DNA of 64,000 bases, taken from positions 384,001 through 448,000 of the forward strand of contig CP045477.1 of assembly GCA_009392915.1 (NCBI GenBank), read 5' to 3'. A program made the translations under genes and the position numbers. The notes under the pieces were generated by a model that did not search any database, had not been told where the DNA came from, and was given only the letters and a program-made list of their open reading frames with translations. Below are positions 18,361 to 41,244 of the stretch, in pieces (position 1 is the first letter of the stretch; every line of letters starts with the position of its first letter). The stretch is from Candidatus Forterrea multitransposorum CG_2015-17_Forterrea_25_41. Lineage in GTDB: Archaea > Iainarchaeota > Iainarchaeia > Iainarchaeales > CSSED10-239.

Positions 18361-18365
18361 TAACG

Positions 18366-18382
18366 GTCCGATTTTTTCGGAC
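18366..18382. other. GC-rich hairpin gtccg-attttttt-cggac immediately beside the duplicated segment
   Basis: A perfect 5-bp stem with a 7-nt loop in otherwise AT-rich DNA. Confidence 0.35.
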
Positions 18383-18444
18383 ACTTCGCTTTCTTTTAAT
18401 TAACTATATATCCTACAAGTATATTTATTTTTAAAAAAAATATA

Positions 18445-19777: not shown

Positions 19778-19791
19778 ATATATATTGGTTA

Positions 19792-20295: not shown

Positions 20296-20346
20296 AGAAC
20301 ATCACATATATATAAGAGTCTTTAATTTATATATTGATTTTGTAAG

Positions 20347-20367
20347 AGAGGGTAAATGGCCGAGAAA
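20347..20367. promoter_or_regulatory. Copy 2 of the 21-bp motif AGAGGGTAAATGGCCGAGAAA, upstream of the DinD-like gene
   Basis: Exact 21-mer. In minus orientation it is followed about 14 bp later by TATATAAATTAAAG, then the ATG at 20295. Confidence 0.5.
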
Positions 20368-20382
20368 GAGAAGAATAGAATT

Positions 20383-21619: not shown

Positions 21620-21627
21620 AATAAATC

Positions 21628-22008: not shown

Positions 22009-22020
22009 AATATTTATTCT

Positions 22021-22062
22021 ACTTTTTATATTTATTCTACTTTTTATATTTATTATTCTTTT
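22021..22062. repeat. 18-bp tandem direct repeat (tttattctactttttata, about 2.3 copies) at the 5' end / promoter of the RhuM-like gene
   Basis: Exact adjacent copies at 22021-22038 and 22039-22056, plus a partial third. Confidence 0.6.
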
Positions 22063-22361
22063 AAATTATTTAATCACAAACAATTTTTCTAAGTATAATA
22101 ATAGAAGATTATTTATGTTTAAAAAGCTTTCCAAAGTGCCTGACCATAAAAGGATTTTTAATCTTTTGATAACTTGTAGTATAGTTATTAATATTAAATT
22201 TTTCAGAATCAGAAACACCCTTTTTTGATACTTTTTAACTTAAAAATATCATGAGTGATACTTTTTTAATTAATAGTGTCAAAAGACTACCTTTTTGATA
22301 ATTTTCTAATAATCTACAAAATAAGTTATGTTTAAATAGATTATTAATTATTAAACTATCT

Positions 22362-22817
22362 ATGGATATAGAAAAATTACCTTTTAGAAAAGAAGTTACA
22401 GCATATATTGTAAATGAAAATAAAGAATTTATAGTTATCTTTTCAGCACTTGCAAACAGGTTTTGTAAAACTCCTGCTGGAGGTGTTGAAGAAAATGAGC
22501 CTTCAGATAAAGCAATATTAAGAGAAATTAAAGAAGAACTTAATCTTGATATAGAAATTATTGCAAAATCAAAGATAGAATACAAATGGGAACATACAAA
22601 AGAAAGAATAATTGAAAGAAACTTAAAATTTAGAGGATCAACTGGAGAAGTTTTTCTTGCAAAAATAAACCCACCAAATCAAGAGATTAAAATACAAGAA
22701 GAAGAAATCTCAGGGTATAAATGGATTAAAAAAGAAGATGTAGATAATTATTTTGCAACAGACACTTTAAAAGAAACAGCAAGAAAGATGTTTGAAGAGT
22801 TTAAAGAATATTTTTAA
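22362..22817 (+). CDS. NUDIX hydrolase
   Basis: The Nudix box is GGVEENEPSDKAILREIKEELNL (Gx5Ex7REUxEExGU). Confidence 0.8.
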   Translation: MDIEKLPFRKEVTAYIVNENKEFIVIFSALANRFCKTPAGGVEENEPSDKAILREIKEELNLDIEIIAKSKIEYKWEHTKERIIERNLKFRGSTGEVFLAKINPPNQEIKIQEEEISGYKWIKKEDVDNYFATDTLKETARKMFEEFKEYF

Positions 22818-23406
22818 AAAAATGATATTATTTATGAAAATAAGAAAAATAAAATTAAGAGAGCTAAAAGAAGCAGATATTTTTAAAGAAAAAATATTAA
22901 ACCCAGAAAAAAAAAGAAGATATAGACCATATTATAAAATTTTAAAAAATTACAAAAGAGAGCCTTCTTTATTTATTGGAGCTTATGATAAAAATAGAAT
23001 TATAGGAGTTGCTTTTGGGCATATTATAAAAAATAGAATATTATTAGGTGAAATGGCTGTTTTAGAAGAGTATAGAAACAAAGGGATTGGAAAAAAAATA
23101 TTAAAAAAAATTGAACAAAATTCAAAAAAATTAAATAAGAAATATATAGAGCTTGGTGCTCTTGATAATGCAGAAAAATTTTATCTTAAACAAAATTACA
23201 AACCAATTATTTTTGTGCAAATATATCCAAAAAATATCTTGAAAAATTACAATCATTTAAATTATAAAATAATTAAAGAAACAAATTATGTTGATTCTAA
23301 AAGATTTTATATTGAGGTTAAAAGATATGATCCTAAATTAAAAGAAAAAATAGAAAAAGAATTTAAAGCATATGATGTAATCTATTTATTTAGAAAATAT
23401 TTATAA
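22792..23406 (+). CDS. GNAT N-acetyltransferase
   Basis: Motif A is YRNKGIGKKILKKIE (R/Q-x-x-G-x-G/A). Confidence 0.6.
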   Translation: MKSLKNIFKKMILFMKIRKIKLRELKEADIFKEKILNPEKKRRYRPYYKILKNYKREPSLFIGAYDKNRIIGVAFGHIIKNRILLGEMAVLEEYRNKGIGKKILKKIEQNSKKLNKKYIELGALDNAEKFYLKQNYKPIIFVQIYPKNILKNYNHLNYKIIKETNYVDSKRFYIEVKRYDPKLKEKIEKEFKAYDVIYLFRKYL

Positions 23407-26296: not shown

Positions 26297-26533
26297 ATGG
26301 TAGAAAAAGAACTTGCACTTATAATAAATGGAAACTTAAGAAAAAAGATAATATTAAGTTTAGCAATTCCTAACATAGCCACAAATTTAGCAAAAAAATT
26401 AGATGTTTCAAGATCTTCTGTATCAAGGACCTTATTATTTTTAGAGAAGCATTTTCTTGTAGAATGTATAAATAATGATGCAAGTTTTAACAGGTTATAC
26501 AAGCTTACCTTAAAGGTACAAGAAAGTTTCTGA
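26297..26533 (+). CDS. Small winged-helix DNA-binding protein (ArsR/TrmB-like)
   Basis: HTH is ATNLAKKLDVSRSSVSRTLLFLEKHFLV. It runs convergent to the end of the R-M operon. Confidence 0.4.
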   Translation: MVEKELALIINGNLRKKIILSLAIPNIATNLAKKLDVSRSSVSRTLLFLEKHFLVECINNDASFNRLYKLTLKVQESF

Positions 26534-26566: not shown

Positions 26567-27220
26567 TTAAGTATAAATTATTTTACTTTTTATAAATTTA
26601 ATTTCAAGTTTTTCTGTGCATTTAATTTTAATTATTATATTTGCACTTTTTGAAAAATTATCTGCAAAAATATTTATGTTTGAACTAATTTTATATATTT
26701 TATTTTTTTCAAATTTAATTTTAGGAAATCCAATAGGTATTTGTTTAATCATAGGTAAAATATTTCCATTTATATTTACACTTCCTTCAAAAAAATTAAA
26801 TAAATCTAAATAATGCAATTCATTTTTAGATAAATTAAAATTTTCTTTACCTTCAGAACATTTACCTTTATGAGTTGCACTCCAGACAAAATAATTAGGA
26901 TCAAAAGGATATATTTTTTTATTATTCAATTTTATTTCATTACATTTAATTTTAATATTGTTTATTGCTATTGAACCTATATTTATTACTTTTATTCTAA
27001 AATAAATTAAATTACAACTTGAACCATCATGTTGATTAATATAAATTTTATTAATCTTATGAACACAGTTAACATCATCTAAATCAATTTTAATTTTTGG
27101 TTTTTTAATAAAATTAATAATATCTTCTTTAAATAATGCAACAACTACTGCACATAGAGTTAAAAAAGCCATAATTATTTGAATAATTGAATCTAAATTA
27201 TTTTCAACCATCAATACCAT
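26567..27220 (-). CDS. Single-pass membrane protein, last gene of the R-M operon (overlaps hsdR stop by 17 bp)
   Basis: An N-terminal TM helix is followed by a beta-rich, Cys-containing ectodomain. IYFRIKVINIGSIAINNIKIK resembles IYFYLSNVGQRPTTIKKM in the 34397..34879 product. Confidence 0.4.
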   Translation of the reverse strand: MVLMVENNLDSIIQIIMAFLTLCAVVVALFKEDIINFIKKPKIKIDLDDVNCVHKINKIYINQHDGSSCNLIYFRIKVINIGSIAINNIKIKCNEIKLNNKKIYPFDPNYFVWSATHKGKCSEGKENFNLSKNELHYLDLFNFFEGSVNINGNILPMIKQIPIGFPKIKFEKNKIYKISSNINIFADNFSKSANIIIKIKCTEKLEIKFIKSKIIYT

Positions 27221-30200
27221 CTCTACAAATTCTTTCTGCTTGTTCTAAAACCAATTTTACTGCTTCTGCTTGCATATCAGGAGGATAACCATACTTTGAA
27301 AGAATTCTCTTAACCAAAACTCTTATCTTTGCTCTTTCAGTTTCTCTAATTTCCCAATCAACGCTTGTTGTATTCTTTTTAATAGTATCTGTTAAAATTT
27401 TTGCAATAACAACTATTTGTTTATCCCCTAAAACATCTAAAGCACTTTTATTATTTGAAAGAGCATCATAAAAAGCAACTTCATCTTCGGATAAATCAAG
27501 TTCTTCACCTTTCTTTTCAGAAGCTTTAATTTCTTTTGCAATTTTTAATAGTTCTTCAATAACTTCAACAGTTGTTATACTTCTATTAGTATATAATTTA
27601 ATAATATTTTCAATCATTTCCTTAAAAGATCTTTGTTTTACAATATTTTTTCTAAATCTGGATTTAATTTCATCATTAAGAAGTTTTCTATACATCTCTA
27701 ATGCTAAATTCTTTTGAGGTAAATTTTTAATTTCAAGCATAAATTCTTCAGAAAGTATAGAAATATCTGGTCTTTTAAGTCCTGCAACTTTTAAAACATC
27801 CATAATTCCAGAAGACATTATTGATTTTGAAATTAATTGATTTAAATTTTGTTCTAAAAGCTCAGTTTGAGAAATATTTCTAGTAACAGTATTTTTTACA
27901 AACTGTGATTTAATTGCTTGGAAAAATGCAATTTCTTCTTTTAAATCTAAAGCTCTTTTATCAGGAACTGCTAAAGAGAATGCTCTTAAAAGATTAATAG
28001 TTGCATCAATAAATCTTTTTTTACCATCTTCTTGTTTTAATATATGTTCCATTGCATTAATTAAAAGCTTCATTCTATAATTTGTGTCTTTATTTTCTAA
28101 ATCATATTCAAACTTATATAATAAAGATTTAACAACATCATATTTATTTAATAATAAATTTACTGCTTCTTCTTGATTAATTCCAACCTTTTGTTGATCT
28201 TTTGGAGAATAATTACCTAAGGCTTCTTTTAATTGAGTAAGTATACTTATATAATCTACAATTAATCCACCTTGTTTTTCTCCAAAAACTCTATTTACTC
28301 TTGCAATTGCTTGCATTAAATTATGGTCTTTCATTGGTTTATCAATATACATTGTATGAAGAGAAGGAACATCAAAACCAGTAAGCCACATATCTCTTAC
28401 AATTACAAGTTTAATCTCTGAAGAAGGATCTTTAAAAACATCTCCAATTTCTCTTCTTTTTTCTGAATTTCTAATATGTCTTTGCCAGTCTAAAGGGTCA
28501 GTTGCGTTACCAGTCATTATTACCTTTAAAAATCCTTTTTTATCATCTTCGTTATCCCACTCTGGTTTAATTTTTATTATTTCATTATATAAATCTACAC
28601 ATATTCTTCTAGACATACAAACAATAATACCTTTTCCTGGCATTCCTAGTTGTCTTTCTTGGAAATGATTTATTATATCTTTTGCAATTTCTTTAATTCT
28701 TTCAGGATGACCTATTATTTTTTCAATTCTTGCCCATTTACTTTTTAATTGTTCTTTTGTATCTTTTTCTTCAGTTTCTGTTACATATTCAAAATCTTTA
28801 TCTAAAGTTATTTGAGATTCTGGATTTAAAGATATTTTTGCAAGTCTACTTTCATAGTAAATAGGAACTGTCATTTTATCTTCAACAGCTTTACTGATAT
28901 CATAAACATCTACATTTTCTCCAAATACATTTCTTGTACTTTTATCACTTTTTTCAATTGGAGTTCCTGTAAAACCAATATAGGTTGCATTTGGAAGAGC
29001 ATCTCTTAGGTTTTTTGCAAAACCTTCTAAAAAACCATATTGTGATCTATGTGCTTCATCAACAATAACAACTATATTTTCTCTATTTGATAGTTCTGGA
29101 TAAACTTCTCCTTTATTTTCTGATGAAAATTTTTGAATTGTTGAAAAAATAACTCCTCCAGAAGATACTTGTAATAGTCTTTTAATTTCTTCTCTATCTT
29201 CTGCTTGTTTTGGATCTTGTCTTAAAACATCTTTACATTTTGAAAATGTTGTGAAAAGTTGATCATCTAGTTCGTTTCTATCTGTTAAAACTAATAAAGT
29301 TGGATTGTTTAGTTGTTGTATAACTTTTCCTGAATAGAAAAGCATGGTTAATGATTTTCCTGAACCTTGAGTATGCCAAACAACACCTGCTCTTTTATCT
29401 TTTCCTTTAACAGCTTTAATTGTTGAAGATACTGCATTGTTTGTTGCATTATATTGATGATATGCTGCTATTTTTTTAATAGTTTTATCTTTATCTGCTT
29501 CATAGACTATAAAATTGTTTATTAAGTCTAATAATGTTTCTTTATTTAACATTCCTCTTATTAAAACTTCTAATTGTGTTAAATAAGAGGCTTGATCTTT
29601 ATATATTGTTTTCCAGATCATGAATCTATCTAGATTTGAAGAAATTGTTCCAACTCTTGTGTCTGTTCCGTCTGAAATTACTAAAATTTGATTATAGTTA
29701 AAGATTGTTGGAATTTCTTGTTTGTATGTTTGTAATTGGTTGTATGCTTTTTTAATATCTGCATTTTCATCTGTTGGATTTTTTAATTCTATTAAAACAA
29801 CTGGTATTCCATTTATAAATAAAATAATGTCTGGTCTTCTGGTATGTTCAGTTTCTTTAATTGTAAATTGGTTTAATGCTATAAATTCATTATTGTTTAT
29901 GTTATCTTTGTCTATTAAGTTTATTTTTATCCATTTTAGGTTTCCATTTATTCTTGTTTGAACGGTTATTCCTTCTGTTAGATATTTGTAAATTTGTTTG
30001 TTGTTTTCTATTAGTTTTTGTGATTCTATTCTTTGTAGTTTTTTAATAGCTTCTTGTTTTGCATCTTCAGGAAGATTTGGGTTTATATCACTTATTTTTC
30101 TTTTTAAAGTTTCATTTAAGAGCACTTGTGAGAAATCATCTCTTTCTGGTCTTTGGCTATCTGGAGCTATGTCTACTCCATTAAGTTTAGTGTAACCTAT

Positions 30201-30260
30201 TTCTTCAAACCAAGAAAGTGCTTGGTTTTCCACATCTCCTTCTCTTAAAAATGATGTCAT
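27204..30260 (-). CDS. hsdR: Type I restriction enzyme R subunit (HsdR)
   Basis: SF2 helicase motifs TQGSGKS (I) and VVIVDEAHRSQ (II, DEAH) are present. The N-terminal nuclease region and C-terminal HsdR domain follow, over about 1018 aa. Confidence 0.9.
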   Translation of the reverse strand: MTSFLREGDVENQALSWFEEIGYTKLNGVDIAPDSQRPERDDFSQVLLNETLKRKISDINPNLPEDAKQEAIKKLQRIESQKLIENNKQIYKYLTEGITVQTRINGNLKWIKINLIDKDNINNNEFIALNQFTIKETEHTRRPDIILFINGIPVVLIELKNPTDENADIKKAYNQLQTYKQEIPTIFNYNQILVISDGTDTRVGTISSNLDRFMIWKTIYKDQASYLTQLEVLIRGMLNKETLLDLINNFIVYEADKDKTIKKIAAYHQYNATNNAVSSTIKAVKGKDKRAGVVWHTQGSGKSLTMLFYSGKVIQQLNNPTLLVLTDRNELDDQLFTTFSKCKDVLRQDPKQAEDREEIKRLLQVSSGGVIFSTIQKFSSENKGEVYPELSNRENIVVIVDEAHRSQYGFLEGFAKNLRDALPNATYIGFTGTPIEKSDKSTRNVFGENVDVYDISKAVEDKMTVPIYYESRLAKISLNPESQITLDKDFEYVTETEEKDTKEQLKSKWARIEKIIGHPERIKEIAKDIINHFQERQLGMPGKGIIVCMSRRICVDLYNEIIKIKPEWDNEDDKKGFLKVIMTGNATDPLDWQRHIRNSEKRREIGDVFKDPSSEIKLVIVRDMWLTGFDVPSLHTMYIDKPMKDHNLMQAIARVNRVFGEKQGGLIVDYISILTQLKEALGNYSPKDQQKVGINQEEAVNLLLNKYDVVKSLLYKFEYDLENKDTNYRMKLLINAMEHILKQEDGKKRFIDATINLLRAFSLAVPDKRALDLKEEIAFFQAIKSQFVKNTVTRNISQTELLEQNLNQLISKSIMSSGIMDVLKVAGLKRPDISILSEEFMLEIKNLPQKNLALEMYRKLLNDEIKSRFRKNIVKQRSFKEMIENIIKLYTNRSITTVEVIEELLKIAKEIKASEKKGEELDLSEDEVAFYDALSNNKSALDVLGDKQIVVIAKILTDTIKKNTTSVDWEIRETERAKIRVLVKRILSKYGYPPDMQAEAVKLVLEQAERICRDGIDG

Positions 30261-32140
30261 AATTTATCACAATTATTATTTTTAATAAAAACATATAATC
30301 TTTTTATTAATTCTTGAGTAATATTTGGTAAATCATTAAATTTTATTTCTTTATCAGTCATATATTTAATTGATTTTTTTGAAAATTCTAATTTAGAATT
30401 TATTTTTTTATATTTATTTGTATCTTGAATTGAATTAAATAAACTTGAATCTATTTTGTTATCTACAAATATATTTTGCCCTAATTCATCAGGAGTAAAA
30501 ACTTTATCTTTAAAACTAAAAATGTCATTAAAAATTTCACAAGGCAACAAATATTCTATTTCTTTATGATATGCCCAAAAATTAGAAGGTAAATTTTCAG
30601 ATAATATTTTTAATCTATTTCCTTTAATATTAATTTTTGGTTCAATAACATCATTTTCTGAATCTATAGATAAATATTTTTTACCAGTTAAAGGGTTATA
30701 ACCATCATTATCAGCAATAATAAAATTATTTTTATTAATTGCATCTACAGTAATTTTTAAATTATCTTCAATATCTAAAAAGTTAAAATGAACAATATTG
30801 CCTCCACCATATTCAATAAAAGAATAGTGTTTATCTTCATTAAATTTAATTAAACTTGAATCTGAATCAAAATATAATTCCAAATATTTTTTAATATATA
30901 GTCTATCAGATATCCCTTCTACCCAAATAATACAATTAGATAAAAATACAGATGAGTTACGTACTTCGAGTAAATCTAAAATATCCTTATTTTGAGTAGT
31001 ATTTTTAATTACAAAATTACTATTGTTTTTTTCAAATGAATAAATAGATTTATTATTATAATCAAGTGTAATATCTAAAAGATGATTGGAATGTGTAGTT
31101 ATAAATATTTGTGCATTTTTTGCAAATTCACTATTATATACTTCTAATAATTTTCTTTGCATCCCTGGATGTAATGTTAATTCTGGTTCTTCAATAAATA
31201 TTAATAAATTTTCATTAAAATATTTAAATAATGGAAAAGTACATATCATAATAGTCTGTAATCCATCTCCAAGTTCATAAATAGGTCTTTCAACATCATC
31301 AATTTGTATATACAGTACATCAGAATTAATATTAGGAATTAAATTTATGTGCCTATCATTAAAAAAAGATTTACTTAGAAAATCTTCATAATTTTTTATT
31401 AAATTTCTTTCTTTTTGACTTCCTAATAGCATTTTTTTAATATCCTCATATAAAGATAATCCTGTAAATATAAAACAATTGGGATATTTTGTATTAAAAT
31501 CAATAATATATTTATCAGAGTGATTTTCATTAAAATAATCGTATTTTGTTCTATCTTGATAACAATCAAAATCATTAAATAAAAAAGATTCACTAATTAA
31601 TTTTGATTTTTCATCAGAAGAATCATTTCTAATTATTGGTCTAAGACCTCTTAACATAGGAATATATAAATAAGTATATTTTTGATCTAATCCAACTGTT
31701 AGTTCATCTTTAGTTTTAATAAATTTATCTATAAATAGAGCTAATTCATTTGTTTTAATATTACCATTATAAGTAGTGACATCTCCATTAGTTGAAGTCT
31801 TTATATTTGTTTTAATTTCGTCGTGAAATTTTAAAGAAATAGACAGGTCAGAAACATATTCTATATCTTTATATTTTAAAGGAATATTTAACACTTCAGT
31901 ATTAGGTAATTTATCTATATTAGGATATTTTCTAATTAATTCTTTAGAAATATTTTCATACATATTATATACTTCTAAGGTTTTTACTGTATTATAAGTA
32001 GTTTTTTTACTAAATATATGTCTTAATAATCTACTCTTTCCAGAATTATTTCCACCTACAAAAATATTTAGTTTTGATAAACTATTAATAGTATCTGGAT
32101 AACCTTCAAAATTTAATTTAATATTTTTAATTAATTCCAT
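30257..32140 (-). CDS. OLD-family ATP-dependent nuclease (ABC-type ATPase plus Toprim), embedded between hsdS and hsdR
   Basis: Walker A is IFVGGNNSGKSRLL. Walker B and H-loop are LLIFIEEPELTLHP. The Toprim Glu is in CIIWVEGISDRLYI and the Toprim DxD is FIIADNDGYNP. Translationally coupled (ATGA overlaps) on both sides. Confidence 0.7.
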   Translation of the reverse strand: MELIKNIKLNFEGYPDTINSLSKLNIFVGGNNSGKSRLLRHIFSKKTTYNTVKTLEVYNMYENISKELIRKYPNIDKLPNTEVLNIPLKYKDIEYVSDLSISLKFHDEIKTNIKTSTNGDVTTYNGNIKTNELALFIDKFIKTKDELTVGLDQKYTYLYIPMLRGLRPIIRNDSSDEKSKLISESFLFNDFDCYQDRTKYDYFNENHSDKYIIDFNTKYPNCFIFTGLSLYEDIKKMLLGSQKERNLIKNYEDFLSKSFFNDRHINLIPNINSDVLYIQIDDVERPIYELGDGLQTIMICTFPLFKYFNENLLIFIEEPELTLHPGMQRKLLEVYNSEFAKNAQIFITTHSNHLLDITLDYNNKSIYSFEKNNSNFVIKNTTQNKDILDLLEVRNSSVFLSNCIIWVEGISDRLYIKKYLELYFDSDSSLIKFNEDKHYSFIEYGGGNIVHFNFLDIEDNLKITVDAINKNNFIIADNDGYNPLTGKKYLSIDSENDVIEPKINIKGNRLKILSENLPSNFWAYHKEIEYLLPCEIFNDIFSFKDKVFTPDELGQNIFVDNKIDSSLFNSIQDTNKYKKINSKLEFSKKSIKYMTDKEIKFNDLPNITQELIKRLYVFIKNNNCDKL

Positions 32141-33432
32141 TAATATTTCACCCTTATTTTTCCAGACATTAATTTAGGTAATAATAAATCTCTTATTTCA
32201 GATAATTTCTTATTTTGCCTTTTATTTTCTGAAATTTTAATAAATGTACTTCTGATCATTGAATTATATTTTTTCAATATTTCATTTGATGGATTCAATA
32301 TCTGTATTTTCTGAATGTTTTCATTATTAATTGCTTGCATTGTTGTACCATTACATAAGTTATTTTTTATTATTTCAAAATCATCATTTAATACAAAATT
32401 CCAAATATAATACAAAGCATTTTCTTTTATGTCTAACCCAGCAAATCCAGTAGATAAAATTAAATTTTCTAATTCCCAAGCGCTATACTTATCAAAATAA
32501 GTTATTTTTTTACTATTTTTCATTTTAGCAAACCACACTGTATTCTCTTTAGGTTGCATATTTGCTCTTGATGGTCTTTTTATAAATGTAATTTTAGTAT
32601 TATAATTTATTATTTCAGAATTATCTATATCTGCAGTTGCAACATATGTTTTTTCATCAAAGTCTTCTGTACCAACCTTTGTAAAAGACGTTAGATTATT
32701 GTCTCCTAAATGCCCAACATCCCATCCTTTAGGTATTTCTTTTTTTAATTCTTTATTATAAACCATTTCTCCTCCACTAGATTTATAAGGTTCTCCTTTT
32801 TCATTTGGAAATTCAAAATCAACAAACCATCTTTTAAATAAAGTTTTTCCTATTTCTTCAAGTGTTTGATTCATTTTTCTGTTTAGTTCTATTTTTTCAT
32901 CTAAATCAGAAAGGATTTTTGCAATTTTTAACATTTCATTATTATTTTTTGGAACTATAACTAGTAATTTTTTAATATCCCCTAAACTAAGTGTTTTTTG
33001 TGTAGAACCACCAACATTTTTTTCAATTTGATTTAAAATATATTTAGAATTTAAGGCATAATATAAAAAATAACTGTTTATATTCGGGTTAATTATCACC
33101 GTATTTTGCCCTAAACAAAATAATTCTGTTGTATTTACAAAACTTGTAATTCCATATGTTCCAACCCTAGTCATTATGATATCATTTTGCTTTGGGATAT
33201 AATTTTTAGTAAATTCATCATAAATAGATTTAGTAACTTTTAATGTATTTGATAAATCTAAACTACCTGATTTCACATCAGTTACTCTTACCATTGATAT
33301 TCCTTTATTAACATAAATTGGAGTTTTATGACAAGAATCAATAACTATAGATATATCATTTAATGATTTAACGTCCCAATCTTTAGGAATTAATCCAATT
33401 TCTGTTTTTTTAAATTTTATTTTATTAATCAT
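32140..33432 (-). CDS. hsdS: Type I restriction-modification specificity subunit (HsdS), two target-recognition domains
   Basis: The conserved central and C-terminal coiled-coil blocks (LSDLDEKIELNRKMNQTLEEIGKTLFKRWFVDFEFP ... LSEIRDLLLPKLMSGKIRV) are typical of HsdS. Confidence 0.85.
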   Translation of the reverse strand: MINKIKFKKTEIGLIPKDWDVKSLNDISIVIDSCHKTPIYVNKGISMVRVTDVKSGSLDLSNTLKVTKSIYDEFTKNYIPKQNDIIMTRVGTYGITSFVNTTELFCLGQNTVIINPNINSYFLYYALNSKYILNQIEKNVGGSTQKTLSLGDIKKLLVIVPKNNNEMLKIAKILSDLDEKIELNRKMNQTLEEIGKTLFKRWFVDFEFPNEKGEPYKSSGGEMVYNKELKKEIPKGWDVGHLGDNNLTSFTKVGTEDFDEKTYVATADIDNSEIINYNTKITFIKRPSRANMQPKENTVWFAKMKNSKKITYFDKYSAWELENLILSTGFAGLDIKENALYYIWNFVLNDDFEIIKNNLCNGTTMQAINNENIQKIQILNPSNEILKKYNSMIRSTFIKISENKRQNKKLSEIRDLLLPKLMSGKIRVKY

Positions 33433-34400
33433 AATATTTCCAATTTATGTTCTGAATTAACAATTTCATAAAAATCATTAATATAAGTAATTATGTTTAA
33501 ATATATCGTATTATTTTTTACATCTGATACTTCTATGTGAGAAGTTATTTCAAAAATAGATCCTGTTCTTGTTTCTTCAGGAATATTAATATTCTCAGAA
33601 TACTCTAAAATTCTAAAATTTTTAATTTTAACTTTATCTTCTCCAATTTCAATTTGATTTAATTTAGACATATAATCATTAATATAACTTTTAAAATCAT
33701 ATGAATTGCTAAATTCCTCAATTGAATTAATAAAATTTTCTTCAGGATAAATATTATCTAATTTAATAAATAAACCATCACCTATCGGTTCTATAACTAT
33801 ATCTTTATTAAATAACTCTTTAAATTCTAATGCACAATTTTTATTAAATCCTAAATCCCTTGTAATTAAAAATACATTTTCATAATCATCAAAATCTTGA
33901 GATAATATTGTCTCCCATATCAAGGCATCTTTAAAACCAGAATCAGATTTTTTATCTTTATTAAAAGGAGACTTTTTTTCTAATGCTCTTATTTTTAGAT
34001 CATTAAATTTTTGAAAAATTAAATCATCAGAAATTTTTAAAATTTTTATTTTGTTTTCAAAAATATAATTTCCAATTTTATCCAAAATAAAATCTTTTAT
34101 ATTAAAATCATCTGAAATTTTAAATAAGTTAATTTTCGAATCAATATAAGCATATCTTTTTTTAATGTCACCTAATTTTCTGCTATCGGATTTAAAACAA
34201 TCTCTTCTTTGTTTTTCTAATTCAAATAAAGTTATATCTGTTATTGATAATTTAATATATTCAAACAAATTTTTTTTAAAAATATAATCATACAATTTTT
34301 TAAAATCATTATTAAATGTAAAAGTATGATAATAAATATTATCACTACTATTTTCTTTTAACACATTTGTATCAAAAATAATTATTGTTTTTGGCATCAT
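33429..34400 (-). CDS. PIN-like domain protein (uncharacterised), first gene of the insert between hsdS and hsdM
   Basis: PIN-like acidic positions are present: IIIFDTNVL (D), TLFELEK (E), DALIWETIL (D/E) and FLITRDLGF (D). An extra C-terminal domain of about 130 aa follows. Start and stop overlap neighbours by 4 bp. Confidence 0.4.
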   Translation of the reverse strand: MMPKTIIIFDTNVLKENSSDNIYYHTFTFNNDFKKLYDYIFKKNLFEYIKLSITDITLFELEKQRRDCFKSDSRKLGDIKKRYAYIDSKINLFKISDDFNIKDFILDKIGNYIFENKIKILKISDDLIFQKFNDLKIRALEKKSPFNKDKKSDSGFKDALIWETILSQDFDDYENVFLITRDLGFNKNCALEFKELFNKDIVIEPIGDGLFIKLDNIYPEENFINSIEEFSNSYDFKSYINDYMSKLNQIEIGEDKVKIKNFRILEYSENINIPEETRTGSIFEITSHIEVSDVKNNTIYLNIITYINDFYEIVNSEHKLEIL

Positions 34401-34879
34401 TTAAAATCAAATATTTTCTTTTTATTAGAATAATTAATTATTATTTTATATTTTAAATTGTTTTCTAAATTCATCTCTTTTTCAAAATTTTCTTTTGAAC
34501 TATAATTTAATTTAACTAATATTTTATCAGTGTGATTTGGTTGTAATAGAAATGGAAATATAACTGGTTTATATGATGGTAGAGGATAACTTGTTTTTAA
34601 ACCAACACCCAAACTTACAGATTCAGATACATTCAAATAAACTGAATTAGGCATAAATTTAGTTTTATTATGATATAATTCCATCTTCTTAATTGTAGTT
34701 GGTCTTTGACCAACATTACTTAAATAAAAATAAATCCAAATTTCATTTTCATCCATCTTAACTTCTAAAACTTCTTTTTCAACATATAATTTAGGTTTAT
34801 TTTTACTTTCTATATAAAAAGATAATAATATACCTAATATTGCAACTATTAAACCCAATATACTAATTATATATTCCAT
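34397..34879 (-). CDS. Small single-pass membrane protein (N-terminal TM plus beta-rich domain), RM-embedded
   Basis: MEYIISILGLIVAILGILLSFYI is the TM helix. It has weak similarity to the 26567..27220 product. Confidence 0.4.
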   Translation of the reverse strand: MEYIISILGLIVAILGILLSFYIESKNKPKLYVEKEVLEVKMDENEIWIYFYLSNVGQRPTTIKKMELYHNKTKFMPNSVYLNVSESVSLGVGLKTSYPLPSYKPVIFPFLLQPNHTDKILVKLNYSSKENFEKEMNLENNLKYKIIINYSNKKKIFDFK

Positions 34880-35370
34880 TAGTTATCATTTTTCTTTTTA
34901 AACTTTCTAATTAATGCTAATAATAGTTCTTGTTTAAAAAATATTATACTTAGTAATTCTATACCAAAAGCAATATTTAAAACAACAGATAATTTAAAAT
35001 TATTAATTATTGTTTTGTAAATACTTATTTGACTATTTTCTATATTTTCAAATTTTTGATTTAAATTAGTTATTTGATACTGTATAATATTATAATCATT
35101 TTTTATTTCTTCAAAATCTTTTTTAGTTATATTTTCTGTTATTAATTTGTTATAGTCAGACTGACAATTTTTTAGTTGTGAACTAATCTGTATTATATTG
35201 TTATTTAATGTAATTTTATTTAATTCACAATTATTTAATTTATCTACAATAGGTTTACATTTATCCTCTGATAATAAACCAAACAATCCTTGTATAATTG
35301 GAATAAATATCATCACAATTATAAACACAACTAAAATACCTCCAATTATTGCAAATGGATTATCCGCCAT
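34879..35370 (-). CDS. Small membrane protein with N- and C-terminal TM helices flanking a coiled-coil segment, RM-embedded
   Basis: AIIGGILVVFIIVMIFIPII is the N-terminal TM and VVLNIAFGIELLSIIFF the C-terminal TM. The middle is heptad-like and N/Q/K/E-rich. Confidence 0.4.
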   Translation of the reverse strand: MADNPFAIIGGILVVFIIVMIFIPIIQGLFGLLSEDKCKPIVDKLNNCELNKITLNNNIIQISSQLKNCQSDYNKLITENITKKDFEEIKNDYNIIQYQITNLNQKFENIENSQISIYKTIINNFKLSVVLNIAFGIELLSIIFFKQELLLALIRKFKKKNDN

Positions 35371-35372
35371 AT

Positions 35373-36890
35373 CTATTTCACCTCAAAGCCGATTCCTTTA
35401 AGATTTTTCTTAATCTCTTCTTCTAATTTCTTAGATTCTTTAAATTGTTCGCTTAATTCTTTTGTAAGGCGAGTCATCTTTTCTTGAAAAACTTCAGGAT
35501 CTTCCTCTTCTTCCTTAAAACCAACGTAACGGCCAGGTGTAAGAATAAAGTCTTGCTTTTCAATCTCTTCAAGAGAGGCTGATTTACAAAAAGAAAGCTC
35601 ATCTTGATAACTTTTTTTGTTTATCGGGTCTTTTGACCTCCAAAGAGAAACAGTTTCTGAAATTTTTGTAAAATCTTCTTCAGTGAGTTCTCTTTGTCTT
35701 CTGTTAATCATTTGTCCAAGATTTCTAGCATCAATAAAAAGAGTTTCTCCTTTTCTATGTGCAGGTTTATTTCTATTAACAAACCAAAGACAAGCAGGAA
35801 TCATTGTATTATAAAATAATTGAGATGGAAGAGCAATAATACACTCTACAAGATCATCTTTAAGTATATTTTTTCTAATTTCTCCTTCTCCAGAAGTATT
35901 AGAACTTAAAGAACCGTTTGAAAGAACAAAACCAGCAATTCCTTTAGATCCTAAATGATAAATAAAATGTTGAACCCATGCAAAATTAGCGTTCCCTGCA
36001 GGAGGAACTCCATATTTCCAACGAGCATCCTCTCTTAATAGATCTCCAGACCAGTCTGAATCATTAAAAGGAGGATTTGCAATTATAAAATCAGCTCTTA
36101 AGTCTTTATGTTCATCATTTAGAAAACTACCTTCATTATTCCAAACAACTTTATTATCAATACCTCTTATTGCAAGATTCATTTTACATAATTTCCAAGT
36201 TGTTTGATTAGATTCTTGACCATAAATAGATATTTGACCTATTTTTCCACCATGTTTTTCAACAAACTCTTCAGATTGAACAAACATTCCTCCAGAACCA
36301 CAACAAGGGTCAAATATTCTTCCTTTAAAAGGTTGTATTATTTCAACTAATAATTTAACAATAGATTTAGGAGTATAGAATTGGCCTCCTTTTTTTCCTT
36401 CAGCAGAAGCAAATTGTCCTAAGAAATATTCATATACTCTTCCTAAGATATCTTTACTATTATCTTTAGAATTAAAAGAAATTGTTCCTATAAGATCAAT
36501 TAACGCTCCTAATTTTGTTTTATCTAAAGATGGTTTTGAATAATCTTTTGGAAGTATTCCTTTAAGTGTTGGATTTTCTTTTTCAATTAAATCCATTGAA
36601 TCATCAATAATTCTTCCAATTTCTATATTTTTTGCATTATCTTGAAGATATTCCCATCTTGCTTTTTTTGGAACATAAAATACTCTTTGAGAGACATATT
36701 CATCTTTATCTTCTGGGTCTGCATATTCTTCTTCTTTTAGTTTAGTATATAGTTCTTCAAAAGAATCAGATATATATTTTAAAAATATTAAACCTAAAAC
36801 TACATGTTTATATTCTGCAGCATCCATATTACTTCTTAATTTATCTGCTGCTTTCCAAAGCTTTTCTTCAAATCCTAAATCTTGAGTCAT
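35373..36890 (-). CDS. hsdM: Type I restriction-modification DNA N6-adenine methyltransferase (HsdM)
   Basis: The HsdM N-terminal domain is present. Motif I is [13 protein letters not shown] and motif IV is IIANPPFN. Confidence 0.9.
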
Positions 36891-36960
36891 AATTAATCTC
36901 TTCTTTTATATAAATATAATATACATCTAAACACTTTTAAAGGTATTATGTATTAAAAAA

Positions 36961-37347
36961 CTATTCAAATCTAATCTCTTTTCTATCATCTTCTATTGCT
37001 TGTTTTATTTTATTATATTCTTCTTCACTTAACTCTATTATATTACTATAAGTATAATCTTCCTTTGCAAGCTTAAATCTTTCTTGTAAAGAACGTGCAC
37101 CAAGACCTTTATTAGATAAAAGTAATAAAGAAAGTTTAATCTGATAAGGATATGGTTTTTTCCAAGAAGTAAATTCATTGTCTACTTTTTTAATAACTTT
37201 AAATATTCCAAAAATTACTCCTTGACCATAATATACAATAATATCATCTAAATTAACTAAATCTCTTTCATTTTTGTCTATAAAACCACAATATTCTTTT
37301 GTTTTAACAAAAGATTCCCAAGAATGGTTAATTAAGTAATATTTCAT
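36961..37347 (-). CDS. PUA-like EVE-domain protein (tentative)
   Basis: A 128-aa protein starting MKYYLINHSWESF..., with DDIIVYYGQGVIFGIFKV resembling the EVE beta-barrel core. It lies 70 bp upstream of the hsdM start. Confidence 0.35.
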   Translation of the reverse strand: MKYYLINHSWESFVKTKEYCGFIDKNERDLVNLDDIIVYYGQGVIFGIFKVIKKVDNEFTSWKKPYPYQIKLSLLLLSNKGLGARSLQERFKLAKEDYTYSNIIELSEEEYNKIKQAIEDDRKEIRFE

Positions 37348-37349
37348 TT

Positions 37350-38729
37350 TTAATCATATCTAAATCCATATTTTTCAGTTAATTTTTGCCATTCATCATG
37401 ATATTTTTTCCATTCATTATATTCAAATTCATCTAATACCTGGCCAGAACCATAACTATCTAATTTATTTTGCAAAAATTTTAATCTCAAATTATCATCA
37501 TATTCTTCTTTAACACTTTCAAAAGATTTACCTTCAGAAACAACATAAATATTTGGCTTTGAAATTAATTTACCTACTCCAATATAATCTCCATCACTAT
37601 CTGTAATAATACTTGGAGTTGTTGTTTCTATAAAACAATAACCAGAATTATTATAAGAATATTTAATTGGGCATTTTAATCCTATTGAAGCATGCTGCTC
37701 TAATTCAAAACTAAAAATTGCAACACCATAACCTAACTCTTTTAACATTAATGCAAGTAAATTTGTTTTATCCCCACAAACTCCTGTTTGATCATATAAT
37801 GTTTCATAAGCATATCTATTACTATAATTATGATTAAAAGAATCCCAATCATAAGGCATTGTTTGAACTAAACTGATTGCAATCCTTGCTTGATCATCAG
37901 TATTATTTGTTATTTTTTTAATTTCATTAATTAATGGTAGAATATATCTTTCTTGATCTTCAGTATTAACATACATTAATGACATATATTCAGAAGTAGG
38001 AGGAGATTCATAAGAAGAATAAGTTACTGTTCGAGGTAAATTTGACAAATAATAATTAAACCCATTATAGACAGTGTAATTAAAACTATTAGGTACACCT
38101 CTTAGAGTATAATTTAACTTAATTGGCTTAGGTTCAGTTTGCAATTTATGTAAACACTTCCCATTAATATAAATTTCATCTATATCACATAAACATTTTT
38201 CAGGAAACTCAATTAAATTACCTTTCTGACAAAAATAAGGCTTAATATTTGAACAATTATTATATAAAGTACCATCTTCACACCTATTAATAACAAAATT
38301 AAATAATAAATTCATAATTATATAAATTAGAATAATAATAATAACAATATTTCTTAATTGTTTAAATCTAATTTTTTTAAGTAAATGAATAACTAAAGTT
38401 AAAATTAAACTATTTAGTAAAATTATTATAAAAAAGTTAAAACTAACCTTTAATAATAGATAATTAAAACTTAATAAAATAATAACATAAACTAAAGTCC
38501 ATATAAATAAATAAAAATTAAATCTAAATTTATTTTTATAAATTATAACAGTTATTATGCGTGAAAATAAACTAAATATGATTGCTATAAATACTAATTT
38601 AGTGGTATTATTAACAATATTTAATAAATTTAAAAATAAAGAAGATAAATAATATAATAGACTATAAATTAATATCCAAAATAGAAACCAGTAAGATTTA
38701 TAAAATCTAAAAATATTATTATTTCTCAT
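37350..38729 (-). CDS. Polytopic membrane protein with C-terminal transglutaminase-like cysteine-protease domain
   Basis: About six N-terminal TM helices and a Cys-rich linker precede the domain. GVCGDKTNLLALMLKELGYGVAIF (Cys), EQHASIGL (His) and CFIETT follow. Confidence 0.45.
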   Translation of the reverse strand: MRNNNIFRFYKSYWFLFWILIYSLLYYLSSLFLNLLNIVNNTTKLVFIAIIFSLFSRIITVIIYKNKFRFNFYLFIWTLVYVIILLSFNYLLLKVSFNFFIIILLNSLILTLVIHLLKKIRFKQLRNIVIIIILIYIIMNLLFNFVINRCEDGTLYNNCSNIKPYFCQKGNLIEFPEKCLCDIDEIYINGKCLHKLQTEPKPIKLNYTLRGVPNSFNYTVYNGFNYYLSNLPRTVTYSSYESPPTSEYMSLMYVNTEDQERYILPLINEIKKITNNTDDQARIAISLVQTMPYDWDSFNHNYSNRYAYETLYDQTGVCGDKTNLLALMLKELGYGVAIFSFELEQHASIGLKCPIKYSYNNSGYCFIETTTPSIITDSDGDYIGVGKLISKPNIYVVSEGKSFESVKEEYDDNLRLKFLQNKLDSYGSGQVLDEFEYNEWKKYHDEWQKLTEKYGFRYD

Positions 38730-38746
38730 TTTATCACATTAATATT

Positions 38747-39094
38747 TCAATGTCTTTTTTTAATTGATCTTTTAGAAATATTAGAACTTCTATATCTTAC
38801 AGGTTTACTTTTTCTATAAGAATCTTTTAAAACAGAATCACTTTCATTTTTTAAATCATGAATAGTTGGTTCTTTATAACCTAACTGCTTTAAAGCAGAA
38901 TCAAATATCTTTGTAAAGCTTAAGTTATTCTCTTGTACAAATCTTTCTTGACTTTTTGTAATTCTCATATTTATTCTTATATTTCTTCTTTCTGGAGAAG
39001 TATCTCTTTTTACATCTTCTATATTCATATAAATCAATCCCTTAAATACACTTTTCCCAATCAAGAGCATAGTGTATATACAACTTTGACACAA
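38747..39094 (-). CDS. Small basic protein, possibly ribbon-helix-helix DNA-binding (true start probably the internal Met at MNIEDVK...)
   Basis: RNIRINMRITKSQERFVQENNLSFTKIFDSALKQL fits a beta-alpha-alpha RHH pattern. Weak. Confidence 0.3.
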   Translation of the reverse strand: MCQSCIYTMLLIGKSVFKGLIYMNIEDVKRDTSPERRNIRINMRITKSQERFVQENNLSFTKIFDSALKQLGYKEPTIHDLKNESDSVLKDSYRKSKPVRYRSSNISKRSIKKRH

Positions 39095-39164
39095 CGAGTT
39101 TATAAATAGATCGATTACACTAAAATATAATAAAAAGAGAAGATTAAAAAATAAATCTTATCTA

Positions 39165-39890
39165 CTAAACTTTAATCTCTATTAAAACAGGATTATGGTC
39201 ACTAAATCTTCTAATTTCATCATTTTCAAGAACTTTGCAAGAAATAATGTTTTTAAAAATAGGTTTATTCATAAAAAAGTAATCATTTTGCCACTTAACT
39301 TTACTTTTTTTATGTCTTAAGGTCTGTACAGGATATTCTTTATCAGTTAAATCAAAAGCATCAAAAAAATTAAAATCTTTTAATCTATCAAAAAAAATCT
39401 TATGAGAGTTATTATATTTATATATTAAATCAAATTGAATACTTGCATTTAAATCTCCCCCCAATATAATATTTCTTTTACCATTAAGTTTACCATAAAA
39501 CAAAGGAGATAAATCAGATAACATGCTATGTAGATTAGGAATTGAATAACCATCTGTCATAAGACCATATAATGATATAAAAGTAAGTTTTTTATTATTT
39601 ATAACAGTATTTGCTATTGTTAAAGATCCATTAAATTTAGTATTTATTGTTTCCTGAGAAAGATTGTATTTTTTACTATAAATTCCAGATCCCCAATTAC
39701 GATTTTTATCAATTTTATTCCAAATAAGATTTGAATCTTTTTTAATATGTTCAGGAGGATTTGATTCTTGAAATAAATATATATCTGCATCAATATTATT
39801 TAAAAAATAATCCCAAATATCTTTATTTAGCTTTTTATTTTTCCAATAATCCATATTCCAAGTAACTATTTTAATATTCATTCTTATCAA
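39165..39890 (-). CDS. Endonuclease/exonuclease/phosphatase (EEP) family protein
   Basis: IVTWNMDYW, FQESNP, GGDLN and SDHNPV match conserved EEP catalytic blocks. Confidence 0.7.
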   Translation of the reverse strand: MIRMNIKIVTWNMDYWKNKKLNKDIWDYFLNNIDADIYLFQESNPPEHIKKDSNLIWNKIDKNRNWGSGIYSKKYNLSQETINTKFNGSLTIANTVINNKKLTFISLYGLMTDGYSIPNLHSMLSDLSPLFYGKLNGKRNIILGGDLNASIQFDLIYKYNNSHKIFFDRLKDFNFFDAFDLTDKEYPVQTLRHKKSKVKWQNDYFFMNKPIFKNIISCKVLENDEIRRFSDHNPVLIEIKV

Positions 39891-39898
39891 TTTTTATT

Positions 39899-40738
39899 TT
39901 AAATAACCTTCTTAATATTCTTTTCCAAGTAAACAATAAACTTATCTTTATTCTTTCCTTTTAACTTTTCCCAAGAATTATATACTTTTCTTATTTTATC
40001 TTCTAAAATAATATCTTCTTTATCATTATATCTGTATCTTGCATATTTTTCTTTATTATAACCTAACTTATATGCTAAAATATTTTCAATAGTAGATGTA
40101 AAAGTTTCACTAAATGACTGCTTTTTTATTCCACCATATTTATCTAAAATATATTTTTCAATTCTATTATATATTTCATTATTTGAATTAATTACATGAA
40201 TAAGTTCATGAATTAATAAAATATATATTCTATTTTTAGTAAATTTTCTATAATCAACATCATCTCCTATAGATATATGAAAAGATAAATTTGTTGCAGA
40301 ACCTCCAAAACCAGGCCTTGTATTATTTGCAACAAAGAAAGTAGAGCTTACTTTTGTAGAATTATAAATAACATCTAAATAAGGTTTAATTATTTTAAGT
40401 TCTTTCTCTTTAAAATTAGTTATAAATGTATTTAGAAAATCTTCTGATTTTTTATTAATAACAATAGGAAATAATTTTTTTAAAACAATTAGATGTTTTT
40501 TTTCAATATTACTTAATTTTTTTTTATTAACAATATTATCTATTAAATTTTTGTAATTAAGCCTATTTGTAGAAATAATACTATAATCTTTATTAATCAA
40601 AAAAATTAAATCTACCATTTCTTTTAATTGATTTTTATTAGCAAAAGTATAAACTTTATCAATATTACAATATGCTTTACAAGCAAGTCTTAAATCTTTT
40701 GAAGGTTTTATTAAGTTTAGTTTAATATCAACACTCAT
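39899..40738 (-). CDS. Hypothetical HExxH-motif protein (putative zinc metallopeptidase)
   Basis: ILLIHELIHVINSNNEIYN. Nothing else is diagnostic. Confidence 0.3.
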   Translation of the reverse strand: MSVDIKLNLIKPSKDLRLACKAYCNIDKVYTFANKNQLKEMVDLIFLINKDYSIISTNRLNYKNLIDNIVNKKKLSNIEKKHLIVLKKLFPIVINKKSEDFLNTFITNFKEKELKIIKPYLDVIYNSTKVSSTFFVANNTRPGFGGSATNLSFHISIGDDVDYRKFTKNRIYILLIHELIHVINSNNEIYNRIEKYILDKYGGIKKQSFSETFTSTIENILAYKLGYNKEKYARYRYNDKEDIILEDKIRKVYNSWEKLKGKNKDKFIVYLEKNIKKVI

Positions 40739-40805
40739 AAAGATATCTATTAAATAAAGGTTTTTTAAAAGTTATGTTTAATAAGGAGCTATCATAAACT
40801 AAAAA

Positions 40806-41147
40806 TTAAACATTTACCCAAATAACACAACCTTTCTTATGAACGTAAGGTTTTGGAGAAGAATATCTTTTGATATCAGACAATACCCAAGCATGAGGAT
40901 TATTATATTTTAAATCTAAAACATCTTCTTTCTTTATTTGATGCTTTTCTAAGTTTTTAAATAAAATATCTTTGTTAATTTTTATTGAATCTTTAATAGT
41001 ACATTCACCATATACTTTTTTGCTGCCACTCATAATAAGAGCAATTCTTTCACCAATCTTTGAAGTATTAAAGTTTCTTATCTCCCAAGTCTTTTTTCCT
41101 TCTAAGATTAAATTTAACCATTTTTCTTTAATTATAAGGCCTTTCAT
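40806..41147 (-). CDS. ASCH-domain (PUA-like) protein
   Basis: MKGLIIKEKWLNLILEGKKTWEIRNF...GERIALI matches the ASCH N-terminal beta-barrel signature. About 113 aa. Confidence 0.55.
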   Translation of the reverse strand: MKGLIIKEKWLNLILEGKKTWEIRNFNTSKIGERIALIMSGSKKVYGECTIKDSIKINKDILFKNLEKHQIKKEDVLDLKYNNPHAWVLSDIKRYSSPKPYVHKKGCVIWVNV

Positions 41148-41244
41148 AAAAGATATCTATATTTCAAAAGGCTTTTAAACTCTTTTATGTAGTAATTAAA
41201 CTATTTATTAAAAAACAAAAATATATCTTAATTAAGATGATAAA

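Follow-up and report, generated by a model that had tools for sequence, protein, structure and literature searches.

New immune systems have often been discovered among defence genes nested within restriction-modification (R-M) operons, and the work on such genes has been almost all bacterial. Defence genes embedded in type I R-M operons have been described under the term 'guilt by embedding' and include validated ATPase-TOPRIM proteins (Payne et al. 2024, 10.1101/2024.01.29.577857), with TgvAB in VPI-2 of Vibrio cholerae as a worked example (PMC11411939). Stand-alone EVE proteins closely tied to type I R-M systems are likewise on record, mostly from archaea (Bell et al. 2020, PMC7641849). The current study concerns a 64,000 nt stretch of DNA (the window) from Candidatus Forterrea multitransposorum (contig CP045477.1, positions 384,001 to 448,000), and in particular a block of nine genes in which hsdM, hsdS and hsdR are interspersed with genes for membrane proteins and predicted nucleases, and are preceded by a gene for an EVE-like protein. 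We consider it fairly probable that this block is a complete type I R-M operon acting as a scaffold for embedded accessory defence genes in a small-genome DPANN archaeon.

Type I R-M operons with embedded defence genes are known, as are EVE genes beside archaeal type I R-M systems. What is new is a family of proteins typified by one of 217 amino acids (aa), for which Pfam, PHROG and PADLOC have no model, a 160-aa gene that stays constant while its nuclease neighbours are exchanged, a coiled-coil membrane partner, and the triple occupancy of a single operon in a DPANN archaeon. As a DPANN-archaeal example with three occupied positions, the locus yields concrete candidates.

A type I R-M operon with three occupied positions

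The nine open reading frames (ORFs) of the block all lie on the minus strand (Table 1). The gene order proposed in the first-pass annotation, hsdM – 163 aa – 160 aa – PIN – hsdS – OLD – hsdR – 217 aa with the 128-aa gene upstream, was borne out by both coordinates and domains, as were the 17 nt overlap of the 217-aa ORF (start at nt 27220) with the end of hsdR (stop at nt 27204) and the spacer of exactly 70 nt between the 128-aa ORF and hsdM. From hsdM to the 217-aa gene, the successive junctions are a gap of 2 nt, a 1 nt overlap, ATGA, ATGA, a 1 nt overlap, ATGA and the 17 nt overlap, so that co-transcription of hsdM through the 217-aa gene is the natural reading.

Table 1. Features of the block and its flanking gene, in the order in which they are read (window coordinates)
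Feature	Position (nt)	Strand	Basis
459-aa multi-pass membrane protein, transglutaminase-like core	37350..38729	-	Pfam Transglut_core near threshold
128-aa stand-alone EVE/PUA-like protein	36961..37347	-	AlphaFold2 and Foldseek fold match
70-nt spacer between EVE-like gene and hsdM	36891..36960	-	T6 run, TTTAAAA box
hsdM, type I N6-adenine DNA methyltransferase subunit, 505 aa	35373..36890	-	Pfam, PADLOC
163-aa membrane helix/coiled coil/membrane helix protein	34879..35370	-	hydropathy
160-aa single-pass membrane protein, beta-rich C-terminal domain	34397..34879	-	hydropathy, homologues
323-aa PIN_12/DUF4935 protein	33429..34400	-	Pfam
hsdS, type I specificity subunit, two target-recognition domains, 430 aa	32140..33432	-	PADLOC, Pfam
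627-aa single-gene OLD-family ABC ATPase + TOPRIM protein (class 1-like)	30257..32140	-	Pfam, PADLOC, PDB
hsdR, type I restriction subunit, 1018 aa	27204..30260	-	Pfam, PADLOC
217-aa single-pass membrane protein, Ig-like beta-sandwich	26567..27220	-	ORF; structure model

Judged by their domains, hsdM, hsdS and hsdR are full length and make up a complete type I R-M system. HsdM matches Pfam N6_Mtase (3.9e-111) and HsdM_N (1.1e-27) as well as PADLOC MTase_I (2e-217). HsdS matches PADLOC Specificity_I (4.9e-92) over residues 17-429 of 430, and also Pfam Methylase_S. HsdR carries Pfam HSDR_N (4e-49), SWI2_SNF2 (2e-80), T1RH-like_C (7.7e-113) and T1R_D3-like domains, and the PADLOC model REase_I scores 1057 over residues 6-1011. 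The 64,000 nt window contains neither a silent copy of hsdS nor an inverton.

The 627-aa protein between hsdS and hsdR has an ATPase domain (Pfam AAA_15, 4.5e-17; AAA_21, 5.3e-16) with a Walker A motif, GGNNSGKS, at residue 29, a Walker B motif, FIEEPE, at 315 and an H-loop, TTHS, at 348. Motifs of a probable TOPRIM domain follow, namely VEGISD at 407, which supplies the Glu, and ADNDG at 476, which supplies the DxD. It is matched by the PADLOC models GajA, AriA, Old and HEC-01A, and the GajA and Old models, like the PDB entry 6p74, align over the ATPase-TOPRIM junction. The last of these, the OLD protein of Thermus scotoductus, is its best PDB sequence match (1.3e-5). As in phage P2 Old and 6p74, both of class 1, an ABC ATPase precedes TOPRIM-type Glu/DxD motifs and the protein is encoded by a single gene without a UvrD partner. 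Unlike them it occupies the hsdS-hsdR gap, overlapping its two neighbours by 1 and 4 nt, and its similarity to class 1 is distant, the match to 6p74 covering about 160 residues. An OLD-type nuclease is an expected kind of passenger, as ATPase-TOPRIM proteins embedded in other systems have been validated.

The 323-aa protein (named a DUF4935 protein by NCBI) matches Pfam PIN_12 over residues 7-185 (3.3e-11, 44.3 bits against a cut-off of 32). It comprises a predicted N-terminal PIN-like nuclease domain, with FDTN at residues 9-12, and an uncharacterised C-terminal region, and a search of the PDB gave no solved structural relative. A survey of DUF4935/PIN_12 proteins (Matelska et al. 2017, PMC5499597) described them as nearly all bacterial and as monocistronic in most cases. 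The window protein resembles those surveyed in length (about 320-350 aa), in its N-terminal PIN-like domain and in a C-terminal region of unknown fold, but it is archaeal, overlaps the genes on both sides by 4 nt and is preceded by genes for two membrane proteins.

Like the embedded genes of described type I systems (those of Payne et al., PrrC in EcoprrI, and TgvAB), the inserts lie on the same strand as hsdM, hsdS and hsdR, and are nested among them, here with overlaps. The kinds of protein also agree, with PIN-type nucleases and an ABC-ATPase-TOPRIM nuclease resembling the validated HEC-04. The 160-, 217- and 163-aa families recur at other defence loci. The window differs from them in that two gaps and the 3' end are filled at once, in a DPANN host; in that its membrane components and PIN_12 protein match no model in the 2023 PADLOC release, PDC and HEC models included; and in that one insert gene, that for the 160-aa protein, is constant while its neighbours are exchanged.

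On the scaffold reading, the first gap (hsdM-hsdS) would hold a membrane module of the 163-aa and 160-aa proteins together with the PIN_12/DUF4935 nuclease, and the second (hsdS-hsdR) the single-gene OLD-family ATPase-TOPRIM nuclease; the 217-aa protein, a helix followed by a beta-sandwich, would be coupled to the hsdR end, with an EVE-like reader placed just upstream of the operon. All genes from hsdM to the 217-aa gene would be expressed from one transcript. The type I enzyme would cut unmethylated incoming DNA, and the PIN_12 and OLD proteins would act as independent second-line or abortive-infection effectors. To go by context and topology, the single-pass proteins may anchor the neighbouring effectors at the cytoplasmic side of the membrane, sense on their behalf or hold them in check there, and the EVE protein may read a modified base.

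A scan for sigma-70 promoters and hairpin terminators found 128 sites where 120 were expected, and is uninformative because it applies a bacterial model to an archaeal host and the count is close to expectation. In the spacer between the EVE-like gene and hsdM, a T6 run directly follows the EVE stop codon, and a TTTAAAA box lies about 45 nt ahead of the start codon (ATG) of hsdM. The T6 run was discounted as a terminator, as the block contains 39 runs of at least five T residues.

Contigs from several further samples carry the block with 100% identity. Identical proteins carry the NCBI label 'hypothetical protein [archaeon]', and the named relatives are Candidatus Iainarchaeum and 'ainarchaeum' metagenome-assembled genomes (MAGs), i.e. 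DPANN archaea. Some of the other-sample assemblies break within hsdS, near codons 100, 230 and 350 (L020, nt 3171-3248; starts of L004-L006), and the end of L020 is a (GGGGATT)n/(AATCCCC)n palindrome. Contigs ending inside hsdS are 100% identical to the window up to the break, and among them no strain variant of the inserts was recovered. The breaks are probably an assembly artefact, the alternative being heterogeneity of hsdS in the population.

Membrane proteins and the exchange of their neighbours

The first-pass annotation had proposed a search for homologous islands in related genomes, and type I operons with inserts do recur in related loci. At all five distinct loci where it was found (5/5), the 160-aa family lies between hsdS and an hsdM that is 73-100% identical to that of the window, and the genes beside it differ from locus to locus. 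In the window these are the 163-aa coiled-coil membrane protein and PIN_12; in L010 a Shedu SduA nuclease (PADLOC, 7e-71) and a PIN_12 protein, the latter a 39% identical orthologue in the matching position; in L007 a DUF3800 protein and a 219-aa protein; in L012 a 176-aa coiled-coil membrane protein and a 267-aa protein; and in L021 an ORF with three helices and PIN_12. The insert of L021 is a 92% identical relative of that in the window, but in place of the 163-aa gene it has this unrelated ORF (L021, nt 573-1043), which encodes about 95 aa and whose three helices are hydrophobic. The content of the hsdS-hsdR gap varies as well, being OLD in the window and unrelated genes of 292, 407 and 706 aa elsewhere. 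The 292-, 407-, 706- and 267-aa cargo proteins have no relatives in Pfam, PADLOC or the PDB. By eye only, an RxxxxH (HEPN-like) motif can be made out close to the C-terminus of the 407-aa protein of L010 (nt 4325-5548), and a possible PD-(D/E)XK-like C-terminal region in the 292-aa protein of L007 (nt 11651-12529).

Such turnover also bears on another account of the inserts, that they are selfish, addiction or toxin-antitoxin-like cargo which stabilises a tolerant, co-transcribed locus and has no dedicated antiviral role. The PIN protein would then be a toxin restrained by its small membrane partners, and OLD a stand-alone selfish nuclease. Cargo is exchanged rapidly between operons that are otherwise orthologous, PIN domains are typical toxins and DUF4935/PIN_12 belongs to a VapC-like group (PMC5499597), and genes of the mobile-element type (Bro-N, RhuM) occur in the surrounding region. 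However, the genes swapped in include recognised defence nucleases (Shedu SduA, OLD), and integrases, transposases and repeat boundaries are all absent at the gaps. In the survey of Payne et al., moreover, most genes embedded in type I R-M were related neither to mobile elements nor to housekeeping, and the candidates tested defended against phage. We regard selfish cargo as an unlikely explanation, although it is compatible with a defensive role and the two are not mutually exclusive.

Members of the 217-aa family lie in or near R-M genes at four of five informative loci, L033 being too short to judge and left out. Besides the window, these include L031, where the order is hsdR, 73 aa, 128 aa, 298 aa, a 220-aa member of the family, hsdS, 70 aa, hsdM. 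Here the 220-aa gene lies inside an unrelated type I operon, directly upstream of hsdS with a 4 nt overlap, and follows a marginally DUF3800-like gene (298 aa; Pfam E 0.099, with a shared LFIDES start), which is the place held by the 160-aa gene in L007. In L001 the family member is followed downstream by a split Res helicase and three N6/N4 methylases, and in L030 it lies 2 kb from a C5 methylase and a MutH-like gene; no relationship was detectable between the 188-aa protein of L030 and the 219-aa protein of L007. A gene of the 217-aa family, an EVE gene and type I R-M occur together twice, in the window and in L031, in unrelated operons. The 163-aa family recurs in L012 and L014. The 163-aa protein is co-linear from end to end with the 176-aa protein that holds the equivalent position in L012 (E 0.006), and this in turn is 40% identical to a 184-aa protein of L014, encoded 570 nt from an EVE gene and beside another type I R-M system. 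None of the 160-aa, 217-aa and EVE families was found in the viral contigs searched. A scan of the genome collection with the 217-family alignment gave no relative, and a bacterial-looking member of this family had no tblastn match in plasmid or phage records.

By hydropathy, the 160-aa protein has one membrane helix (residues 3-21); its homologues are 48-64% identical. It is without a Pfam, NCBIfam or PADLOC model, and PHROG 4989, a family of unknown function, matches residues 3-81 at 7e-6. The 163-aa protein has hydropathy peaks at residues 8-26 and 127-145, a long coiled coil between them and a basic tail, and gave only coiled-coil noise in Pfam and PADLOC. The 217-aa protein had three close relatives by word search and no match in Pfam, NCBIfam, PADLOC or PHROG. 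A profile search with its family reached 96 clusters at E below 1e-3, mostly of 200-260 aa, and no Pfam or PHROG family matches more than one of 75 members. Its members have in common a helix at the N-terminus (AVxVALFxE), a KPK segment and a beta-domain in which N-x-G is nearly invariant, and the structure model of the window protein has a predicted local distance difference test (pLDDT) score of 93. In both single-pass families Lys and Arg flank the helix unevenly (3.4-3.8 after it against 0-0.6 before), which predicts an N-out, C-in orientation with the beta-domain in the cytoplasm.

With a G+C content of about 23%, this DNA permits long spurious ORFs, and the 163-, 160- and 217-aa ORFs match no curated family, so they could in principle have arisen by chance. 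This is effectively refuted by conservation: diverged homologues, 25-64% identical, retain length and position, the 217-aa family extends to 96 clusters and is predicted to fold with high confidence, and identical copies of the proteins are present on 13-48 contigs drawn from many samples.

The first-pass annotation had also suggested that the 217- and 160-aa proteins are paralogues, from a common motif, IYFxIxxxNxG. The motif is present in the 217-aa protein (IYFRIKVINIG, residue 72), but the 160-aa protein has IYFYLSNVG; because this stretch is two residues shorter, an alignment that matches IYF puts NxG out of register unless a gap is opened. In a relaxed form, the motif occurs in only these two among the 68 window ORFs of at least 100 aa. 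N-x-G ends a strand of alternating hydrophobic residues and is invariant in the 160-aa family and at least 90% conserved in the 217-aa family. The common motif is thus real and is a short beta-strand signature. Descent from a common gene did not emerge from the comparisons. BLASTP between the two proteins gave an E of 0.16, and hhalign a probability of 6% with small family profiles. With a 93-sequence profile this rose to 70%, in an alignment that takes in the NxG strand and the KPK segment as well as the membrane helix, and after removal of the helix it fell to 5%, against 3.6% for a reversed-sequence control. Paralogy is accordingly unproven, because the profile signal vanishes with the helix. 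A link between the families through PHROG 4989 was sought and not found. They are nevertheless alike in topology and genomic habit.

The two families might instead be accessory subunits of the type I enzyme itself, holding it to the membrane at the site of DNA entry or modulating restriction. The 160-aa gene is the sole insert gene kept in all five orthologous operons as its neighbours change, L007 and L031 each have a membrane gene that adjoins hsdS directly or overlaps it, in the window there is the overlap of the 217-aa gene with hsdR, and the predicted cytoplasmic beta-domain would suit such a role. It is, however, quite improbable, as the 217-aa family is also found beside R-M genes that are not of type I and once on a contig without any R-M gene, and the type I operons examined outside this lineage lack the 160-aa gene.

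A further proposal is that the 160- and 217-aa families form the conserved core of an undescribed, modular, membrane-associated defence system housed within R-M operons and having exchangeable effectors, in which the EVE protein reads the mark, or the modified nucleotide, of the neighbouring methylase. The plug-in effectors of such a system would be PIN_12, Shedu SduA and DUF3800, with a helix/coiled-coil/helix partner often present. We put this forward tentatively, as a possibility of low probability. Were the membrane proteins indeed sensors or anchors, restriction-linked immunity would be tied to the cell envelope in cell-attached organisms.

Several observations weigh against the scaffold reading. 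The 163-, 160- and 217-aa proteins have neither a PADLOC, Pfam or NCBIfam model nor an informative structural relative. The 160-family loci all represent a single orthologous operon lineage, and the constancy of this gene may therefore owe something to shared ancestry. One locus of the 217-aa family, L002, carries no R-M gene on its 7.2 kb contig. The Pfam match of the 627-aa protein to the OLD-like TOPRIM domain (0.0064, 17.4 bits) is below the cut-off of 23.2. Finally, the EVE gene may be transcribed separately from the operon, together with the 459-aa gene upstream of it.

The EVE-like protein and neighbouring adenine methylases

The 128-aa protein upstream of hsdM had been annotated as EVE/PUA-like from its sequence. 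The call holds at the level of the fold but fails by profile search, there being no match in Pfam (E up to 0.1), NCBIfam, PADLOC or PHROG, and none of 16 family members matching the Pfam EVE family PF01878 at E up to 1. With a profile of the family, the two best PDB sequences were PH1033 and MJECL36, at weak E-values (0.033 and 0.17). Both are archaeal EVE (UPF0310) proteins, and the stretch YPY[RQ][IV]K is common to them and the 128-aa family. The AlphaFold2 model of the protein (pLDDT 88.8) placed MJECL36 first in Foldseek (8e-7, TM-score 0.72) and PH1033 next (1e-6), followed by Atu2648, the EVE-HNH restriction enzyme VcaM4I, THYN1 and then YTH domains that bind N6-methyladenine (m6A). The modelled fold is a PUA-like beta-barrel with a helix after strand 1, nearest to the solved EVE proteins. 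By this model the protein has the EVE fold but falls outside the curated Pfam family, and it is a predicted reader of modified bases.

The context of the family was assessed at 11 informative, distinct loci. In eight, the EVE gene is an immediate neighbour of a type I R-M gene or, once, of a gene for a 792-aa N6_Mtase protein; in two others (L027, L031), it lies within about 0.75 kb of an R-M gene with two small genes between. A type I R-M or N6-adenine methylase gene is therefore beside the EVE gene, or within about 0.75 kb of it, at 10/11 loci, and only L024 shows no R-M or N6-methylase gene nearby. The R-M systems concerned are very different, their hsdM products being 24-81% identical to that of the window, and the EVE gene may come before hsdM (window, L007, L023), after hsdR (L014, L018, L027), after hsdS (L028), two small genes downstream of hsdM (L031) or divergent from hsdM (L026). 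A divergent EVE family, invisible to Pfam, thus tracks N6-adenine methylases. In L023 (nt 92-3058) the EVE protein is 93% identical to that of the window and the first ~45 nt of the 3' spacer are kept, but a different type I R-M system follows (836-aa HsdM, 35% identical), which resembles the swap of an R-M cassette beside a fixed EVE gene.

The association of EVE with type I R-M is already published, and the window gene, like those of Bell et al. (2020), encodes a small single-domain protein with an EVE fold beside hsdR/M/S in an archaeon. It differs in that its family is too divergent for PF01878, no ASCH partner was seen, and its position varies, to the extent that a 93% identical EVE gene can adjoin a different R-M system.

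Elsewhere, the direct partners of the family include zinc ribbons, PIN, a DUF3800-like protein, a 79-aa HNH protein and a DpnI-like nuclease domain. In L018 (nt 9158-9975) a 142-aa DpnI-like (m6A-dependent) catalytic domain is encoded 2 nt downstream of the EVE gene, and in L007 (nt 6350-6999) a 79-aa HNH_3 protein is encoded just upstream of it. These EVE/nuclease pairs look like split modification-dependent restriction enzymes. Two contigs of one MAG, SMAG_U8115 (L027 and L028), carry two EVE paralogues, each beside a different type I R-M system. In L031 (nt 10392-10779) an extra G (GGACAAGGGGATT) splits the EVE-family gene into two ORFs, either a sequencing error or a pseudogene. A 128-aa ORF of the same locus was rejected as the EVE gene, which is the frameshifted ORF further on. 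The 105-aa gene preceding the latter overlaps its start (ATGA); by eye it resembled a transglutaminase, but it was rejected as such, having no Pfam match and a BLASTP E of at least 0.27 against the 459-aa protein of the window.

What the EVE protein might read is a separate question. Rather than foreign hypermodified DNA, it could recognise the cell's own N6-methyladenine mark, or N6-methyl-deoxyadenosine monophosphate (m6dAMP) released as the methylated genome is degraded, and so act as a damage sensor in the manner of Metis/PUA-Cal-HAD. PUA-like sensing of m6dAMP has been described, together with predicted sensor–methylase operons (10.1101/2025.11.05.686725), and there too a reader of the PUA superfamily is genetically tied to N6-adenine methylation. 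Consistent with this are the recurrence of the family beside N6-adenine methylases of very different types and orders (10/11 loci), the locus where a single 792-aa N6_Mtase gene is the only R-M-type partner found, the m6A-dependent nuclease domain 2 nt after EVE in L018, and the m6A-binding YTH domains among the structural neighbours. On the other hand, the closest structures are those of EVE proteins, and among these VcaM4I and THYN1 bind 5-methylcytosine or 5-hydroxymethylcytosine. The argument of Bell et al. (PMC7641849) runs the other way, with the EVE domain recognising marks that the neighbouring HsdM does not make. The 128-aa protein also has no fused effector domain, in contrast to Metis/PUA-Cal-HAD, and its partners vary (HNH, PIN, DUF3800-like, zinc ribbon). 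The likeness to those systems is one of functional analogy only. Recognition of the cell's own mark or of m6dAMP is a doubtful proposition, of low though appreciable probability.

Surroundings of the block

The block had been described as a composite defence island of 10.8 kb. Its composite nature stands, and such operons recur, but its limits do not, as a co-directional minus-strand array continues upstream through nt 37350-42603 and the defence-type island probably extends over ~16 kb. The 459-aa protein, whose gene ends 2 nt before the start of the EVE-like gene, matches Pfam Transglut_core at E 1.8e-4 (22.2 bits against a cut-off of 23). Further upstream are an endonuclease/exonuclease/phosphatase-family protein (nt 39165-39890, minus strand), ORFs of 113, 279 and 115 aa, and a protein with AlbA_2/Schlafen, HATPase_c_4 and helix-turn-helix (HTH) domains (nt 41245-42603, minus strand). 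Some small genes also recur in such neighbourhoods at other loci. In L002, a 301-aa protein encoded near the 217-family gene is 50% identical over 121 aa to the 459-aa protein of the window, and a 204-aa protein (within nt 2011-3775) is 42% identical to a 206-aa protein of L007 (nt 5728-6348), whose gene is upstream of HNH-EVE-hsdM.

Downstream, the region nt 17700-23400 is a mobile-element-like neighbourhood, with a RhuM-family gene (nt 21628-22008), a Bro-N gene (nt 19792-20295), several GNAT acetyltransferases and a NUDIX hydrolase. Between it and the block, a 78-aa winged-helix protein with weak matches to ArsR/Csa3-type HTH domains is encoded on the plus strand (nt 26297-26533), converging on the end of the 217-aa gene, and is a possible local regulator.

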